NCBI GenBank assembly: GCA_963753435.1 | Contig: CAVWCF010000001.1 | Coordinates: 160,001 to 224,000, forward strand | DNA length: 64,000 nt | Reading direction: 5' to 3' | Source of the DNA: an uncultured Actinomycetota bacterium | GTDB lineage: Bacteria; Actinomycetota; Actinomycetes; CAVWCF01 | Shown: positions 54,496 to 61,964 of the stretch, one piece after another | Layout: each line of letters starts with the position of its first letter | How positions within the stretch are numbered: the stretch's first letter is position 1 | Notes under the pieces: model-generated | Databases searched by the model: none | Told to the model about the DNA's origin: nothing | Seen by the model: only the letters and a program-made list of their open reading frames with translations | Made by a program: the position numbers and the translations under genes

Positions 54496-55550
54496 GCGAC
54501 GTCCTGGTCGTCGGCACCGGGTTGATCGGCGGTTCCCTCGGGTTGGCGCTGACGGCTGCGGGACGTTCGGTTTGGTTGACCGACAAGGACGAGGCTGCAG
54601 TCCAGTTGGCCGCCGACCTCGGGGCAGGTCGGCCTTGGTCGGGTCAGGACTGCGACCTGGTCGTGCTGGCCGTGCCACCGTCGGCGGTCCCGGAGGAGTG
54701 CCGCAACTGGCAGGGGCGGTTCCCACAAGCCACCGTCACCGATGTCGCCAGCGTCAAGTCGCAGGTGGTGCTGGAGGTCCGGCGGTCGGCCGACCCGAAA
54801 CGATTCGTGGGCGGTCACCCGGTCGCGGGCCGTGAGGTCGCCGGTGTGCGCGGGGCCCGAGCGGACCTGTTCATCGCCCGGCCGTGGGTGCTCACCTCGG
54901 AGGGCGCTGACCCCGACCGGGTCGACGCGGTCCAGGAACTGACCGTGGCTGTTGGCGCGGTGCCCGTCCGGATGAGCGCTGCGCAGCACGATGAGGCGAT
55001 GGCCCTGGTTTCGCACGCCCCACAGGTGGCTGCTTCGGTGATGGCCGGGCTGCTCGCCGATGCCGACCCCCGACTCGTCGACCTGGCCGGACAGGGTTTG
55101 CGGGACACGACGCGCATCGCCGCCGGCGATCCCGGGCTGTGGGCCGACATTCTGCTCGGCAACCGGGAGGCCGTGTTGCCGGTCCTGCAACGGCTGAGTC
55201 AGAACCTCGACCGCATTCGGGCGGCGCTGCAGGACGCGGACGCCGATTCCGTGCGTACCGGTCTAGGTGCCGGGGTTGCCGGCCGCAGCCGTATCCCCGG
55301 CAAGCACGGGGGTTCGGCCACCTCCTACACGGCCGTCACCGTCGTGATCGATGACGCGCCCGGCGCTCTGGCTCGACTGCTGGTCGCCGCCGGTGAGGCA
55401 GGCGTGAACGTCGAGGATCTGCGGCTGGAGCACTCGCCCGGACAGCCGGTTGGTTTGGTGGAACTGGCCGTCCGACCCGAAGCCGCCGCCGAACTGGCCG
55501 CGGCCCTCACCCAGGCTGGTTGGCGAGTTCATGCCGAACAGCGCCAGTAG
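54492..55550 (+). CDS. tyrA: Prephenate dehydrogenase with C-terminal ACT domain
   Basis: GTGLIGGS, TDVASVK, GGHPVAG, SHAPQ, RDTTRIA. Confidence 0.93.
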   Translation: MSDVLVVGTGLIGGSLGLALTAAGRSVWLTDKDEAAVQLAADLGAGRPWSGQDCDLVVLAVPPSAVPEECRNWQGRFPQATVTDVASVKSQVVLEVRRSADPKRFVGGHPVAGREVAGVRGARADLFIARPWVLTSEGADPDRVDAVQELTVAVGAVPVRMSAAQHDEAMALVSHAPQVAASVMAGLLADADPRLVDLAGQGLRDTTRIAAGDPGLWADILLGNREAVLPVLQRLSQNLDRIRAALQDADADSVRTGLGAGVAGRSRIPGKHGGSATSYTAVTVVIDDAPGALARLLVAAGEAGVNVEDLRLEHSPGQPVGLVELAVRPEAAAELAAALTQAGWRVHAEQRQ

Positions 55551-55560
55551 CCTCACCCGC

Positions 55561-56235
55561 GTGCAGGCCGCAAGTGCAGTGATCGCGGTGGACGGCCCGA
55601 GCGGATCGGGCAAGTCCTCAGTGTCCCGGGGCGTGGCCGCTGCCTTCGGGCTGCGGTACCTGGACACCGGGTCGCTTTACCGCGCTGCCACCTGGTGGGT
55701 GCTGCACAACGGTGCCGATACTTCTGACGCAGCAGCGGTCGCGGCTTTGGTGGACGCTGCTGACATCGCCGCTGGCACGGATCCCGCGTCACCGACCATC
55801 TCCGTCAATGGGCGCAACCTCGCCACGGAGATCAGGTCGGCGGAGGTCACCGGTGCGGTTAGCCAGGTGAGCGCCATCCCGCAGGTGCGGGCGCGGCTGC
55901 TGACCTTGCAGCGGGATTTGATCGGCTCCGGCGGTGTGGTGGTCGAGGGGCGCGACATCGGCACCGTGGTCGCCCCCGATGCCGTGGTCAAGATCTTCCT
56001 GACCGCCGACCCGGAGGTCCGGGGTCAGCGGCGACATCTGGAGACTGCGCATCACGAAGATGCGACGGTCACGGCGCAGGCACTGAAAGCTCGTGACGAG
56101 ATCGATTCCAATCGCCAGGCCAGCCCGTTGCGCGCGGCAGCAGATGCCATCGAGGTGGACGCGACCGACCTCAACTTGGAGCAGGTGATCGCGAAAGTGA
56201 GCGGGATTGTGGCGGAGCGGCTGACCCATGACTGA
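55561..56235 (+). CDS. cmk: Cytidylate kinase
   Basis: [26 protein letters not shown]; TAGCCT 7 nt before GTG 55561. Confidence 0.96.
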
Positions 56236-57565
56236 AGAGGCGGTGACGCAAGCAGCGCTGCCCGTGGTCGCCGTGGTCGGGCGTCCCAACGTGGGCAAGT
56301 CGACCTTGGTTAACCGACTCCTCGGACGTCGCGAAGCGGTAGTTCAGGACATTCCGGGCGTGACGCGCGACCGGGTCGCCTACGACGCGGAATGGTCCGG
56401 GCGCCGGTTCACGGTCGTGGACACCGGCGGCTGGGAACCCGACGCGCAGGGGATGGCCGCCCGCGTTGCGGCGCAGGCGGAGTTGGCCATGCTGTCGGCT
56501 GATGTGATCGTGCTGGTTGTCGACGCCACCGTTGGGGCCACCGACACCGAAGAAGCGGTCACTCGAGTGTTGCGGCGCTCTGGCGCGCCAGTACTGCTGG
56601 CCGCCAACAAGGTGGACGACTCTCGCACCGAATCAGATGCGGCGTCGCTTTGGTCATTGGGGCTGGGTCAACCGCACCCGGTGTCGGCACTGCACGGGCG
56701 TGGCAGCGGCGACCTGCTGGACGCGATCCTGGCGGCCTTCCCGGAGGTGGCCGCAATGCCGGAGCCGCTGGGTGGTCCGCGCCGGGTGGCGTTGTTGGGG
56801 CGGCCCAACGTGGGCAAGTCCTCGCTGCTGAACCGGCTGGCCGGTGAAGAGCGCGTAGTTGTGGACTCGGTTGCCGGCACGACAGTCGACCCGGTCGATG
56901 AGGTCGTGGAACTTGGCGGGGAGTCGTGGACCTTCGTCGACACCGCCGGGATCCGGCGTCGGGTGAAGGAGGCTTCCGGTCAGGAGTACTACGCGTCCTT
57001 GCGGACCAGGGCTGCGCTGGACAAGGCGGAGGTGGCGATCGTCCTGCTGGACGGGTCGCAGCCGCTGACGGAGCAGGACGTGCGGATCGTGCAGATGGTT
57101 GTGGACGCTGGCCGGGCGCTGGTGCTCGCAATCAACAAGTGGGACCTGTTGGACGAGGATCGGCGTGACCTGTTGGAGCGGGAGATGGAGCGGGAGCTGG
57201 CGCATGTGGCGTGGGCTCCGCGGGTCAACGTCTCTGCAAAGTCCGGACGTCACGTAGAGAAGCTGGTTCCCGCACTCCATGAGGCGCTGCAGGGCTGGGA
57301 CACTCGGGTTTCGACCGGCCGCCTGAACGCACTGATCGGGCAGGTAGTCGCCGCGCACCCGCACCCGGTCCGTGGCGGCAAACAGCCCAAGCTCTTGTTC
57401 GCTACCCAGGCGTCGACGCAGCCGCCGAACTTCGTGCTGTTCACCACCGGCTTCCTGGAAGCCGGCTACCGGCGGTTCCTGGAACGACGATTGCGCGAGG
57501 AGTTCGGCTTCCGCGGCACGCCGATGTTGCTCAGCATGAAAGTGCGGGCCAAGCGCAAGAACTAG
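56228..57565 (+). CDS. der: Ribosome biogenesis GTPase Der
   Basis: Two GRPNVGKS/DTxG/NKxD G-domains plus KH-like C-terminus. Confidence 0.98.
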
Positions 57566-57638: not shown

Positions 57639-57712
<74 letters not shown>

Positions 57713-57916
57713 CGGTGTTCGTGCAGGCCATGGGCAGCCATGCCTAGTTCCGTCAATTCGTTGGCTCGAAAGTCGGGCCGCTCCTGCGCTTAGGACTTCT
57801 CTGGCTGCTCGGTCGGCGAGGAGTCCCGACAAGGCGACTTGCCCATGGATGCTTCCGTCAGGGCGTGTTGAGACAACATTGCGACGATGTTTTGACCCAA
57901 AGCAGTTGACATACGG

Positions 57917-57932
57917 TGTGACGCCGGTCACA
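57917..57932. promoter_or_regulatory. CRP-family operator, perfect consensus
   Basis: TGTGA-CGCCGG-TCACA. Confidence 0.8.
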
Positions 57933-57966
57933 AAAAGGGGAAAAGTTCTTCTGGTATTCTTTCCGC

Positions 57967-58092
57967 ATGAGCACCGTCACCGCGCACCGTTGGTCCATCG
58001 AAACATCAGAAACCGCCTCCGGGATCCGCACGATAGGCAGCGTCCTAGGCCGCGCCTTCAATCTGTTCCTGCGCGCGCCCGCCAACTACTGA
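57967..58092 (+). CDS. 41-aa leaderless small protein MSTVTAHRWSIETSETASGIRTIGSVLGRAFNLFLRAPANY
   Basis: TGg-TATTCT 6 nt before ATG; 32 of 40 post-start codons end in G/C; below the ORF-track cutoff. Confidence 0.65.
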   Translation: MSTVTAHRWSIETSETASGIRTIGSVLGRAFNLFLRAPANY

Positions 58093-58230
58093 GGCGCCCG
58101 TGGCGAGTCCATCTGGTGGACTGGGCAACCTGGTCCCCTTGGACAGCCACTCGTCACTGAATCTCGCATGGCCGATTTCATCCTCGCGGGACCGTATGCG
58201 CCCGCCGCCACGGCAGCCAGAGCATTTCCC

Positions 58231-59868
58231 TCATTCGTTCTGACGTGCTCGGGAACCCTCCGGAACCACGCTGGGCAGTTCCTTGGTGAACGCCAGCGAC
58301 AGGAGTGCCAGCAGGGCCGCGGCCAGCAATCCCGCCTTCAGCGCCTGCAACTGGGATTGCTCGTAGTCCTCCACTAGGGCGTCGGCGGTCGGCTGATCGA
58401 GACCGGCCGACTCCACTGCGGCACGGACTTGATCGGAGTCGACGAAGTCCAGCCCCGACTGCACACTGACGCCGACCTCAGCGGAGATTTCCGCGCTGAT
58501 CCGCGGGTCCTCCTCTATCTGGGACACGAAAGTGCTGGTCAGTCCCGTCAAGACGATCGCACCAATCAGGGCGATGCCAAGGGAGGAGCCGAGCTGCTGG
58601 CCGGTGTACTGCAGTCCGCCCGCCTCGCTGCGGCCGGACGCGTCCACCGAGGACTGCACCACGTTGCCCAGTTGGGAAACTATGAGTCCCATCCCAACGC
58701 CCAGAATCGCCATGGACAACGCGAACCAGCCGCCCTTGAGAACCGGGTCGATCGTGGCCATGAGGATGAGCACGGCAGCGGCGGCAGTCACCAGGCCCGA
58801 GCGGACGATGCCTCGAACGCTGAACCGTGCCGAGAGCCGGGACCCGATGGCCGACGTGGCGAACATCGTTATTGAGATCGGCAGCATGCGGATGCCGGTG
58901 TCGAGGGCATTGAGACCAAGAACCAGTTGCAGATACAGGGGCACGACGAAGAAGACGCCCATGAGGATCAAGTTCTGGATGAACAGCCCCGACAGCCCCG
59001 ACCGCAGCATCGGGATTCGCATCAGGTCCAGGTGCACCAGGGGGTCGGTGCCAATCCGTTCCCGGTGGCGTTGCCAGACAGCGAACGCCCACAGCAGCAG
59101 CCCGCCACTGGCGATCACGAACAGAGTCGGGGAGAAGCCGAATAGCGTGAAGGGCACATCTTTCGGCGCCACCCAGCCCCAGGTGCTGGACTGCAGTACC
59201 CCGAGAACCACGACGCCCAGGCCCGAAGCCGACAGCGCCGAACCCACGTAGTCCAGGCGTGGCGCCGCACCGGCTCGCGGTGCGTCTGCGACAACCCTGG
59301 TCATGATGAGGATGAACGCGACCAAAAGGACTTCGCCCACGAAGACCACGCGCCAAGACAACTCCGTCGTGGCCCACCCGCCGACAATCGGTCCGATTGC
59401 GATTCCGGCCCCGGCGACCCCGCCGAGCACGGCGTAGGCGGCGAGCCGCTGCCGCCCCTCAAAGTTGCCGGCCACGAGAGCGGCCAGGGCCGGCAGCACC
59501 AGGGCGGCACCGATCCCTTCCAAGATCGACCAGCCGAGGGTCAGCACCTGCACTGTCGGAGCCACCGCGGTCAGCGCCGAGCCGGCGCCATAGATGAACA
59601 GCCCGACCACAAAAGCCCGGCGTCGGCCGATGATGTCGCCCACCTTGGCCCCAGTGAGGATGAACATCGCCATGGTCAGGCAGTACAGGGTGATGACCGC
59701 TTGGATCGTGGTGACAGTTGTGTCGAAGTCTTCCACCAGAGTGCTGATTGAGACGTTCATGACCGACTGGTCGAGGACCATGACGAACTGAGCCGTGGCG
59801 AGGGCGATCAACGGCGCCCAACCGACCCGCGAATCTGACTTCGTGCTGGGTATTTGGGCATCGGCCAT
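58231..59868 (-). CDS. MFS transporter, 14-TMS DHA2-like
   Basis: QFVMVLDQSVMNV, GDIIGRRR motif A, GPIVGG, WRVVF; TAGGGT 7 nt before ATG 59868. Confidence 0.93.
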   Translation of the reverse strand: MADAQIPSTKSDSRVGWAPLIALATAQFVMVLDQSVMNVSISTLVEDFDTTVTTIQAVITLYCLTMAMFILTGAKVGDIIGRRRAFVVGLFIYGAGSALTAVAPTVQVLTLGWSILEGIGAALVLPALAALVAGNFEGRQRLAAYAVLGGVAGAGIAIGPIVGGWATTELSWRVVFVGEVLLVAFILIMTRVVADAPRAGAAPRLDYVGSALSASGLGVVVLGVLQSSTWGWVAPKDVPFTLFGFSPTLFVIASGGLLLWAFAVWQRHRERIGTDPLVHLDLMRIPMLRSGLSGLFIQNLILMGVFFVVPLYLQLVLGLNALDTGIRMLPISITMFATSAIGSRLSARFSVRGIVRSGLVTAAAAVLILMATIDPVLKGGWFALSMAILGVGMGLIVSQLGNVVQSSVDASGRSEAGGLQYTGQQLGSSLGIALIGAIVLTGLTSTFVSQIEEDPRISAEISAEVGVSVQSGLDFVDSDQVRAAVESAGLDQPTADALVEDYEQSQLQALKAGLLAAALLALLSLAFTKELPSVVPEGSRARQNE

Positions 59869-59990
59869 GCGATGGACCCTAGCGAGCGCAGGTGGTCTAG
59901 CCGGGGACCTGAGCCGACCGCCTCCTGGTGTTGTTGAGCGGCCACCGCCTATGCGCCCTACAGGTGCTGAAGCCACCCGGAGCTGCCTTG

Positions 59991-60006
59991 CGTGACATGC
60001 GCCACA
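59991..60006. promoter_or_regulatory. CRP-like site in the MFS/pck divergent intergenic region
   Basis: CGTGA-CATGCG-CCACA, 8/10 match to TGTGA-N6-TCACA. Confidence 0.5.
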
Positions 60007-60116
60007 CCCGCCCGCCCAGTCCCGCACGCGAAGGAAGCAACGCTGGTCGGGGGATAAGTCCACGAATGTCAGCGCGTGTAGCCTCCGGCTCACGCCCCGC
60101 TCACAAAGGACGATTC

Positions 60117-61964
60117 ATGGTTGACCCGGCTGTTGTGGACCAAGCGCTGGACGCAGGGGGACTGACAAACCCACGGGTACGCGAGTACGTCCACCACTGG
60201 GCCGCCCACACCGGAGCCGACCGTATTGAGGTCGTCAGCGCCGCCGACGACGAGCGCCTCATCGCGGAGAGCCTGGAAGCCGGCGAGATTCAGCCCGCTG
60301 GCGAGGGTCTGTACTACTCACGCAGCTACTCCAAGGACACCGCGCGCTCGGAGGAGCGCACGATCGTGGCGACGAGCAACCCGTCGGACAAGGGTGTCTA
60401 CAACAACTGGCGACCGGCGGCGGAGATGCGGCCGCTGCTGGAAGACAAGATGCGCGGCGCTTCGGCCGGCAAGACGATGTATGTCATTCCCTACTTGATG
60501 GCGCCGCCAGGGTCGCCTCTGGAGCAGTTCGCGGCAGGTGTGGAACTGACGGATCACCGCACGGTCGTGCTGCACATGATCCGAATGGCTCGCGTTGGCG
60601 CGCAGTTCGTCAACAACCTTGCGGACCCGGACAGTTTCGTGCGCGCCGTGCACGTCACCGGGGACCTGCCGAACCTGGGTCAGGGCACCCCGGACGACCA
60701 GCGCTACTTCGTGACCCTCGGCGACGAGCGCACGATCCTGCACTTCGGATCTTCCTACGGTGGCAACGCGCTGCTCGGCAAGATCGCGCACGGTCTGCGC
60801 CAGGCCGCCTACGACGGCTGGTCGTCGGGGAAGTTCCTCGGCGAACAGTTCATGCTGCTGGGCATCACCGACAAGCAGACTGGTCGCAAGTACCACATCT
60901 GCGGTGGTTTCCCGAGTGCCTCGGGCAAGACGAACCTGGCGATGACGCTTGCACCGGACGCCCTCGGCGACCGCTACCACGTGGACTTCTACGGCGACGA
61001 CATCGCCTGGCTCTGGGTGGGTGATGACGGTCGCCTGTACGGCATGAACCCGGAGTTCGGCGTATTCGGCGTCGCCAAGGACACCAACGAGAAGACCAAC
61101 CCGACCGCCCTTGGCTCGATCGCACCCGGCACGCAGGCGCTGTTCACCAACGTCGCGTACAACGAGGTGACGCAGGAGGTTTGGTGGGAGGGCCGCACAC
61201 CGCAGCCTCCCGCCGACGTCACCGGTTGGCGGGACTGGAAGGGCGAGCTCATCTCCGAGCGCGAGCCCGGCGACGACAGCCCCTGGGCGCACCCAAACAG
61301 CCGTTTCACGACGACTCTGGCGAATGTGCCCAACATCGCCGACGACTTCTCCAACCCGGCTGGCGTGCCGATCGACGCGATCATCTTCGGCGGCCGGACC
61401 CGCGATCGGGAGCCGCTGGTCCGCGCCATCACCGACATCGCCGAAGGCGTCTACGACGGACTTACGTTGGGCGCAGAAGCCACGTTTGCCGCTGAGGGCG
61501 TCGAGGGGCAACTTCGCTACGACCCGATGTCAATGCGCCCCTTCATGTCCTACGCCGAGGGCGACTACGCGGCGCACTGGCTCAAGGTCATCGGCGCCGC
61601 CAGCGTGAAGCCGATATTCGCGCACGTGAACTGGTTCCAGCGAGACCCCGAAGACGGCCACTTCCTGTGGCCCGGTTACCGGGAGAACCTGCGTCCCTTG
61701 CTGTGGCTGATGCAGCTGCGCAACGGCGAGGTCTCCGGGCAGGAAACCCCGGTGGGGATCGTGCCGACCAAGGAAGAACTGAACCTGGACGGGCTGGAGA
61801 TCGATGCCGCCGACCTGGACCACATCCTCTCGATCGACCTGGACCGTTGGCACCAGGAGGCCGACTTCCGCCAGAAGCACCTGGAGCAGTTCGACCGACT
61901 GCCGGAGGAGATCTGGGCCGCTCACCGTCGAGTGGCCGCAGCCATCGACTCCGCACGCGGCTGA
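60117..61964 (+). CDS. pckG: Phosphoenolpyruvate carboxykinase (GTP type), divergent
   Basis: DTARSEERT, YGGNALLGK, FPSASGKTN, GDDIAW, AHPNSRF, DPMSMRPF, HVNWF; AAAGGA SD. Confidence 0.93.
   Translation: MVDPAVVDQALDAGGLTNPRVREYVHHWAAHTGADRIEVVSAADDERLIAESLEAGEIQPAGEGLYYSRSYSKDTARSEERTIVATSNPSDKGVYNNWRPAAEMRPLLEDKMRGASAGKTMYVIPYLMAPPGSPLEQFAAGVELTDHRTVVLHMIRMARVGAQFVNNLADPDSFVRAVHVTGDLPNLGQGTPDDQRYFVTLGDERTILHFGSSYGGNALLGKIAHGLRQAAYDGWSSGKFLGEQFMLLGITDKQTGRKYHICGGFPSASGKTNLAMTLAPDALGDRYHVDFYGDDIAWLWVGDDGRLYGMNPEFGVFGVAKDTNEKTNPTALGSIAPGTQALFTNVAYNEVTQEVWWEGRTPQPPADVTGWRDWKGELISEREPGDDSPWAHPNSRFTTTLANVPNIADDFSNPAGVPIDAIIFGGRTRDREPLVRAITDIAEGVYDGLTLGAEATFAAEGVEGQLRYDPMSMRPFMSYAEGDYAAHWLKVIGAASVKPIFAHVNWFQRDPEDGHFLWPGYRENLRPLLWLMQLRNGEVSGQETPVGIVPTKEELNLDGLEIDAADLDHILSIDLDRWHQEADFRQKHLEQFDRLPEEIWAAHRRVAAAIDSARG

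Follow-up and report, generated by a model that had tools for sequence, protein, structure and literature searches.

Organization of the locus

The window analysed here, meaning the whole 64,000-nt stretch of DNA, belongs to a 2.17-Mb genome (G000; 68% GC, 98% complete) of an uncultured host; its gene content, in particular BldD and a CRP that closely resembles mycobacterial and corynebacterial structures, identifies the host as an actinomycete. In this window der is followed by a gene for tRNA-Pro(GGG), a 517-nt gap and then a convergent gene for an MFS transporter; a CRP-type palindrome and a 41-codon ORF lie inside the gap. The AT-rich patch in which the original prediction placed them is present, albeit mild (56% GC over 200 nt vs ~66% around it). 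Two comparisons recur below: L019, a locus from a related strain that is 88% identical to the window over 2.1 kb, and G001, a genome of another genus in the same family as G000. The features of the locus, numbered from the first base of the window, are:

57639..57713, + strand: tRNA-Pro(GGG), upstream neighbour, given for context only
57917..57932, no strand assigned: perfect CRP/GlxR-type palindrome TGTGA-CGCCGG-TCACA (TGTGA-N6-TCACA), overlapping the would-be place of a -35 element; rare, and conserved in L019 and G001
57952..57960, + strand: predicted extended -10 element TGg-TATTCT with no upstream -35 consensus; G001 has the same 13-14 nt around it
57967..58092, + strand: ORF of 41 aa, its TGA ending at 58092; silent-only changes in L019, and relatives of 41 aa
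58024..58077, + strand: codons 20-37, predicted amphipathic, cationic, non-transmembrane helix (hydrophobic moment; AlphaFold)
58075..58092, + strand: APAx[Y/F]-stop motif at the C terminus; it is conserved better than any other part and also present in the 58-aa relative of G001
58101..58127, + strand: short hairpin 9 nt past the stop, a weak candidate for the transcript end, without a U tract and, in the window, folding no better than shuffles
58231..59868, - strand: DHA2-like MFS transporter, convergent downstream neighbour, given for context only and not beside the G001 relative

Several observations concern the surroundings. A gene for GTP-dependent phosphoenolpyruvate carboxykinase (59928-61964, above the NCBIfam cut-off) is divergent from the MFS gene, and cmk and der stand adjacent at 55450-57565. 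The open frame holding der has 446 codons here and 725-740 codons in G001 (C7), G002 (C3) and many class genomes, the longer frames perhaps resulting from fusion of cmk and der or from open sequence that extends far upstream. No island-marking duplicate of the tRNA 3' end was found, nor any paralogue of the 41-aa gene in G000. Upstream of the box, a conserved stretch (57854-57912) contains imperfect inverted repeats at 57867-57877 and 57876-57892; its portion from 57854 to 57886 is unchanged in L019 and not kept in G001, and a second regulator may bind the stretch. Two candidates from this region were rejected: TTGACA at 57906 has no -10 partner that would make it part of a promoter, and a 40-aa minus-strand ORF (57790-57912) shows six replacement changes among its eight changed codons.

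Selection on the reading frame

As had been claimed, a 41-codon ORF with a GC3 of 32/40 opens at the ATG at 57967. Its codon bias supports coding weakly, since 12% of 7002 ATG ORFs with 31-56 codons reach its score; 20% of windows drawn from real genes score below it in codon usage. Between L019 and the window ORF, 4 of 126 nucleotides are changed and all four changes are silent, the exchange of TGA for TAA included (chance 0.005), while the five other frames across the ORF incur replacements or stops. The promoter has one change in 67 nt and the box none, compared with 9/117 and 10/135 in the flanks. A further contig, from another run, carries the replacement change I23V, and members of the 90% cluster differ at no more than four residues. 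This search of related loci for a kept or a broken frame came out on the side of coding, the protein relatives described below keeping start and length as well. Judged by these substitutions, the reading frame is under selection, and the ORF is almost certainly a real gene. The expectation that standard gene callers would miss it did not hold, as JGI/IMG already lists this very protein, along with three near-identical ones, among its predicted proteins (a cluster of four).

An undescribed microprotein family

A HMMER scan of 1.84 billion proteins returned four hits, one of which has 41 aa and is 54% identical to the window protein end to end (E 5e-5); hits P0005, P0006 and P0008, long repetitive or very long proteins, were dropped. 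A profile that included the 54% relative retrieved two more, at 66% and 63%, and an additional cluster member stands at 68% identity. All seven metagenomic relatives (54-98% identical) are 41 aa long, and with the window protein they form a gap-free alignment of eight sequences with 17 invariant columns, T13, T16, G19, G28 and A30 among them. None of these proteins matches a described family in Pfam, NCBIfam, PHROGs or PDB. In the ESM Atlas, relative P0009 as the query found two clusters without a name, of 41 and 42 aa (scores 0.95 and 0.94; 71 and 99 members), which may represent a wider family, and the window protein as the query found shorter unnamed clusters (0.91); all of these are to be taken as leads only.

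Protein-level searches of genomes were less productive. Single-protein and profile searches of class genomes gave weak matches in 13 of 40 relatives (E <=1, best 0.022), and profiles A1 and A3 gave weak hits in 5 and 11 of 400 class genomes, with no convincing homologue; the weak matches that were inspected proved to be partial ones, lying in a different frame of other genes or on the strand opposite them. No relatives were found in the orders of G040 (0/20), G024, G038 and G009 (0/1 each) and G010 (0/8), nor in genome-contig scans, viral scans, and plasmid and phage searches. G002 gave no match, and at 58% completeness this precludes calling the gene absent. The metagenome scan produced three loci, of which L020 and L021 were rejected as partial and without a start or a matching end. 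Four peptide fragments and topic searches matched no paper on the family among the main texts of openly available papers; small-ORF catalogues in supplements could hold members. We regard this as a real, undescribed and lineage-restricted family of microproteins.

The CRP-type box

Re-reading of the sequence bore out the perfect TGTGA-N6-TCACA at 57917-57932, centred at 57924.5. G000 contains three perfect boxes where 0.13 would be expected from 5-mer counts, and ten alternative spacer lengths yield 0-2 perfect half-site pairs each. An order-4 Markov simulation gives 0.09 perfect boxes per genome and, over 210 Mb, no compound pattern of box, promoter and ATG. Sites with at most one mismatch number 19 in G000, 14 of them intergenic by a crude gene call.

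The other two perfect boxes of G000 (C5:40756 and C1:1491739) precede genes that we take, from recognition by eye, to be rpfB-like and dnaK, the latter box lying ~135 nt upstream of its gene. One-mismatch boxes at C1:424721, C1:1657596 and C1:732524 precede what are presumably ssgB-like, rbpA-like and atpB genes, again named by eye, with ~300 nt between box and called start in the case of atpB; a perfect box before atpB, likewise named by eye, occurs in G001 (L072:758) and in G002 (L074:725). Since GlxR targets, according to passages of the published work, include rpf2 and ATP-synthesis genes (PMC3917453, PMC10187061), the genes that follow these other boxes argue for a CRP reading of the box in the window. 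By its sequence, matched beyond chance, the box is a CRP/GlxR-type site, and the predicted site is very probably bound by CRP.

Promoter and leaderless start

The extended -10 element also reads as originally described, with TG at 57952-53, TATTCT at 57955-60 and, after six further nucleotides, the ATG at 57967. No -35 element was found upstream of it (best match 2/6); the 25 nt ahead of the ATG contain nothing that resembles a Shine-Dalgarno sequence, and the ORF has no upstream in-frame start codon. Across G000, TANNNT stands 6 nt before an ATG 115 times and 7 nt before it 67 times, as against 3-25 times for each of 14 other spacings; 88 of the 115 sites with a 6-nt spacing open ORFs of at least 100 codons with high GC3. 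A Markov model, the harsher control, predicts 55 sites of 6-nt spacing per genome, so that the excess is at least twofold. A -10 element six nucleotides before ATG is the commonest leaderless start layout of G000. Leaderless starts are common in this genome as a whole, in which 142 of 182 TANNNT-N6/7-ATG sites open long ORFs; 27 sites with spacings of 5-7 nt open ORFs of 15-99 codons with GC3 > 0.7, and these are candidate small genes in their own right.

We infer that the A of the ATG (57967) is the transcription start of a leaderless mRNA. Counted from there, the centre of the box lies at -42.5, one base beyond the canonical -41.5 of the class II distance originally proposed; by another measure, 23 nt separate the core site from the second base of the -10 element, compared with a canonical 22 in passages of PMC10187061. 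The RNA contigs over the region (X12, X17) are read-sized and unstranded and cover the flanks too, and neither strand nor start is readable from them.

The same promoter before a distant relative in a second genus

A pattern scan of 401 actinomycete genomes (box, 17-27 nt, TANNNT, 5-7 nt, ATG) found seven matches in six genomes, and its reversed control two. The match in G001 consists of a perfect box, an identical 22-nt gap between box and -10, no -35 element, and then a 58-aa ORF (GC3 47/57) that ends in an amphipathic helix and APAFY-stop. This promoter is identical to that of the window at 20 of 33 unconstrained positions (binomial 2e-5 to 3e-4), the first part of the 22-nt gap having diverged, whereas the five other hits agree with it at only 3-8 of the 20 bases that surround the -10. 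With three mismatches allowed, the common promoter occurs in G000 and G001 only among the 401 genomes (control 0). As a separate observation, perfect boxes at L058:1501 (G391) and L060:1501 (G329) precede a -10 and ORFs of 37 and 52 codons, respectively, the sequences of which are unrelated.

A stop-anchored DNA alignment of the last 16 codons and 25 nt downstream scores 35, against a maximum of 19 among 13,793 null stretches; when the ends are compared as protein, 10 of 12,000 null ends reach the same score, and none of them finishes in APAx[Y/F]. Profile-profile comparison with the G001 peptide was not significant (hhalign probability 0.9%), the G001 peptide as the query did not retrieve the window ORF, and the family profile also missed the G001 peptide. 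The shared promoter and C-terminal end nevertheless point to the 58-aa ORF as a distant relative of the window microprotein, and the site is conserved in related genomes, namely in L019 and in G001, which amounts to two independent genera only. G001 has only three perfect boxes, so that in each of the two genomes one of only three precedes the microprotein gene. In G001 the gene is flanked by SnoaL-like and PAP2_3 genes, and the DNA after tRNA-Pro differs in both G001 and G002 from that in the window. Since the gene neighbourhoods differ between genera, the promoter-gene unit seems to travel without its neighbours.

The likeness to G001 at the DNA level extends past the stop, which could suggest that CRP controls a small RNA here, or one of dual function, to which the reading frame is secondary. 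CRP-controlled dual-function RNAs do exist (passages of PMC8915982), and in L019 the silent sites of the ORF have changed far less (3/40) than third positions of the MFS gene (180/545). On the other hand, silent-site divergence in the ORF matches that of its flanks (~7.5%), there is no folding signal (z -0.6) and no conserved structure was seen, the locus has no Rfam match except the tRNA, and start, length and amphipathy are kept in relatives at 54% identity. We consider an RNA of this kind quite improbable and retain the peptide as the product.

The regulator and the direction of control

One Crp-type HTH protein was found in G000; the CRP gene lies at C1 ~1292990-1293660. It matches solved mycobacterial and corynebacterial structures of the CRP/FNR family at E 9e-83, and the stretch of its recognition helix, of mycobacterial type, is identical to that of the top solved structure. 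The genome also encodes two class III nucleotide-cyclase-like domains and, in addition to that of the CRP, two cNMP-binding domains. By homology, then, a cognate CRP with a conserved recognition helix and a cNMP domain is encoded. The two further cNMP-binding domains, together with BldD and a 5-of-6 BldD-like match at 57907, are what would favour another regulator at the palindrome, be it BldD or a second CRP-family protein; the exact BldD box, TNAC-N5-GTNA in passages of PMC4151990, is absent from 57841-57970, and only the one Crp-type HTH was found. Chance as the source of the arrangement is excluded by the 401-genome promoter scan, by the null for the stop-anchored alignment and by the Markov simulation, and we regard another regulator or a chance arrangement, taken together, as very improbable. 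As a side observation, the bldD orthologue itself (C1 ~148250-148750, minus strand; L048) has a TNAC-N5-GTNA box just upstream, and with an SsgA-like gene it places developmental regulators in a 2.17-Mb genome of an uncultured lineage.

TGTGA-N6-TCACA is also the sequence of actinobacterial CRP/GlxR promoters such as those of M. tuberculosis whiB1 and PE22 and C. glutamicum rpf2 (passages of PMC2844151, PMC4117774, PMC13720381, PMC3917453). The likeness extends to an orthologous CRP in G000 and to placement, as the CRP sites of M. tuberculosis are concentrated between -60 and -40, and in that species upstream sites tend to activate (passages of PMC4117774). The present arrangement differs from these in having a single perfect site at -42.5 before a leaderless microprotein, a kind of target that the passages do not describe.

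We propose that CRP would bind over the vacant -35 region and activate the promoter, and that a transcript beginning at the start codon would undergo leaderless translation into the peptide. Activation is probably the correct reading, given the fixed spacing in two genera, the lack of a -35 element in either, the clustering of sites in M. tuberculosis and the precedent of E. coli ompW, which is CRP-activated from -42.5 (passages of PMC4886647).

A TG-extended -10 needs no -35, and the promoter could therefore be self-sufficient, with CRP over the -35 region blocking polymerase; gene and site would then both be real and CRP a repressor. The site is, moreover, one base off canonical class II spacing, a site in class II position at -37.5 represses M. 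tuberculosis whiB1 (passages of PMC2844151, PMC13720381), and AzuC is CRP-repressed (passages of PMC8915982). Against these points, the distance from box to -10 is fixed at 22 nt in two genera although the initial portion of the gap has diverged, which fits contact with polymerase better than steric blocking, and most of the sites that repress in M. tuberculosis lie across the transcription start (passages of PMC4117774); the activated ompW tells in the same direction. Repression seems unlikely, if less so than another regulator.

As to the predicted cAMP control, mycobacterial CRP binds DNA, in the passages cited, without cAMP, which alters binding only slightly (PMC2844151, PMC13720381), while GlxR depends strongly on it (PMC2844151, PMC13720381, PMC10187061), and mutation of crp affects only a minority of the genes to which CRP binds (PMC2844151, PMC4117774).

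A predicted amphipathic helix

Over residues 20-37 the hydrophobic moment is 0.50-0.61, with its peak at 100 degrees, and the net charge is +3. Seven members were scored: whole-sequence shuffles attain the moment of the helix in 0-1.75% of cases, and in all seven this segment presents a broad hydrophobic face bordered by three Arg, with no acidic residue; at its hydrophobic positions I, V, L, F and W replace one another freely. The helix of the G001 peptide is similar (moment 0.48, 2.6% of shuffles). AlphaFold predicts the window peptide as one helix over residues 4-36 (mean pLDDT 72, with 88 over residues 21-30). The moment scoring upholds the C-terminal amphipathic periodicity noted at the outset. 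The best Kyte-Doolittle 19-mer means are 0.79-1.24, under the 1.6 that is the usual hydropathy threshold for a membrane-spanning segment of 19 residues.

Two familiar roles were rejected. A type I toxin is a single membrane-spanning peptide, and the 19-mer hydropathy here is too low to span; an attenuator leader peptide, which would precede a conserved regulated gene of the same direction, does not accord with a next gene that is convergent in the window and, in G001, a PAP2_3 gene.

The predicted helix would lie on the inner face of the membrane, and the conserved APAx[Y/F] end would recruit or modulate a protein partner. Modelling makes a membrane-surface helix reasonably likely, in particular the flanking arginines, the lack of acidic residues and the free exchange among hydrophobic side chains just described. 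The helix could equally bind a protein or itself, and a soluble helix that binds proteins or assembles with itself, perhaps to inhibit a cytoplasmic enzyme or regulator or to serve as its adaptor, would be in keeping with the invariant small or polar residues T13, T16, G19, G28 and A30 and the APA end, which resemble a specific interface, and with the single long helix of the AlphaFold model. Because the breadth of the hydrophobic face and its tolerance of substitution speak against it, we think a soluble helix unlikely and prefer the membrane surface.

Known systems and implications

The whole is perhaps best viewed as a stand-alone small gene, likely CRP-activated in a class-II-like manner and leaderless, with a predicted inner-face membrane helix that recruits or modulates a partner; for this combined reading, drawn from sequence, the balance is about even. 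We infer in it CRP binding, activation rather than repression, a cAMP response, the transcription start, translation, the membrane location and the partner.

E. coli AzuC (AzuCR), also a peptide of fewer than 50 aa with an amphipathic, non-spanning helix, a narrow range and CRP control, is the model for a membrane-surface peptide that modulates a partner enzyme, although it is an enteric peptide of 28 aa, is CRP-repressed, and has a ribosome-binding site within a base-pairing RNA (passages of PMC8915982). With no family match between the two, the comparison is a working analogy only; most likely the window microprotein would work like AzuC, to which it is unrelated. SpoVM of Bacillus subtilis, likewise Gram-positive, is a short membrane-surface amphipathic helix that recruits a larger protein, but has 26 aa and is sigma-E controlled and endospore-specific (passages of PMC10730256); no Pfam match links it to the family described here.

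More speculatively, the family could be among the strongest CRP targets of its lineage, a complete promoter-plus-gene unit of ~200 bp that moves between chromosomal sites, conveying the cAMP signal to a membrane enzyme or transporter through a helix that ends in APAx[Y/F]; this extension we consider doubtful. Its range is narrow, comprising one family among the genomes searched and metagenome fragments, and the G001 relative illustrates that searches by promoter architecture find microprotein relatives that protein profiles miss. If true, this speculative extension would also show class II activation at -42.5, by an actinobacterial CRP and on a leaderless mRNA, in a clean form. Most small proteins known to link carbon or energy signalling with membrane enzymes come from enterics and Bacillus, and here an undescribed actinobacterial family appears with an unusually clean, conserved promoter that is amenable to testing in a laboratory host.
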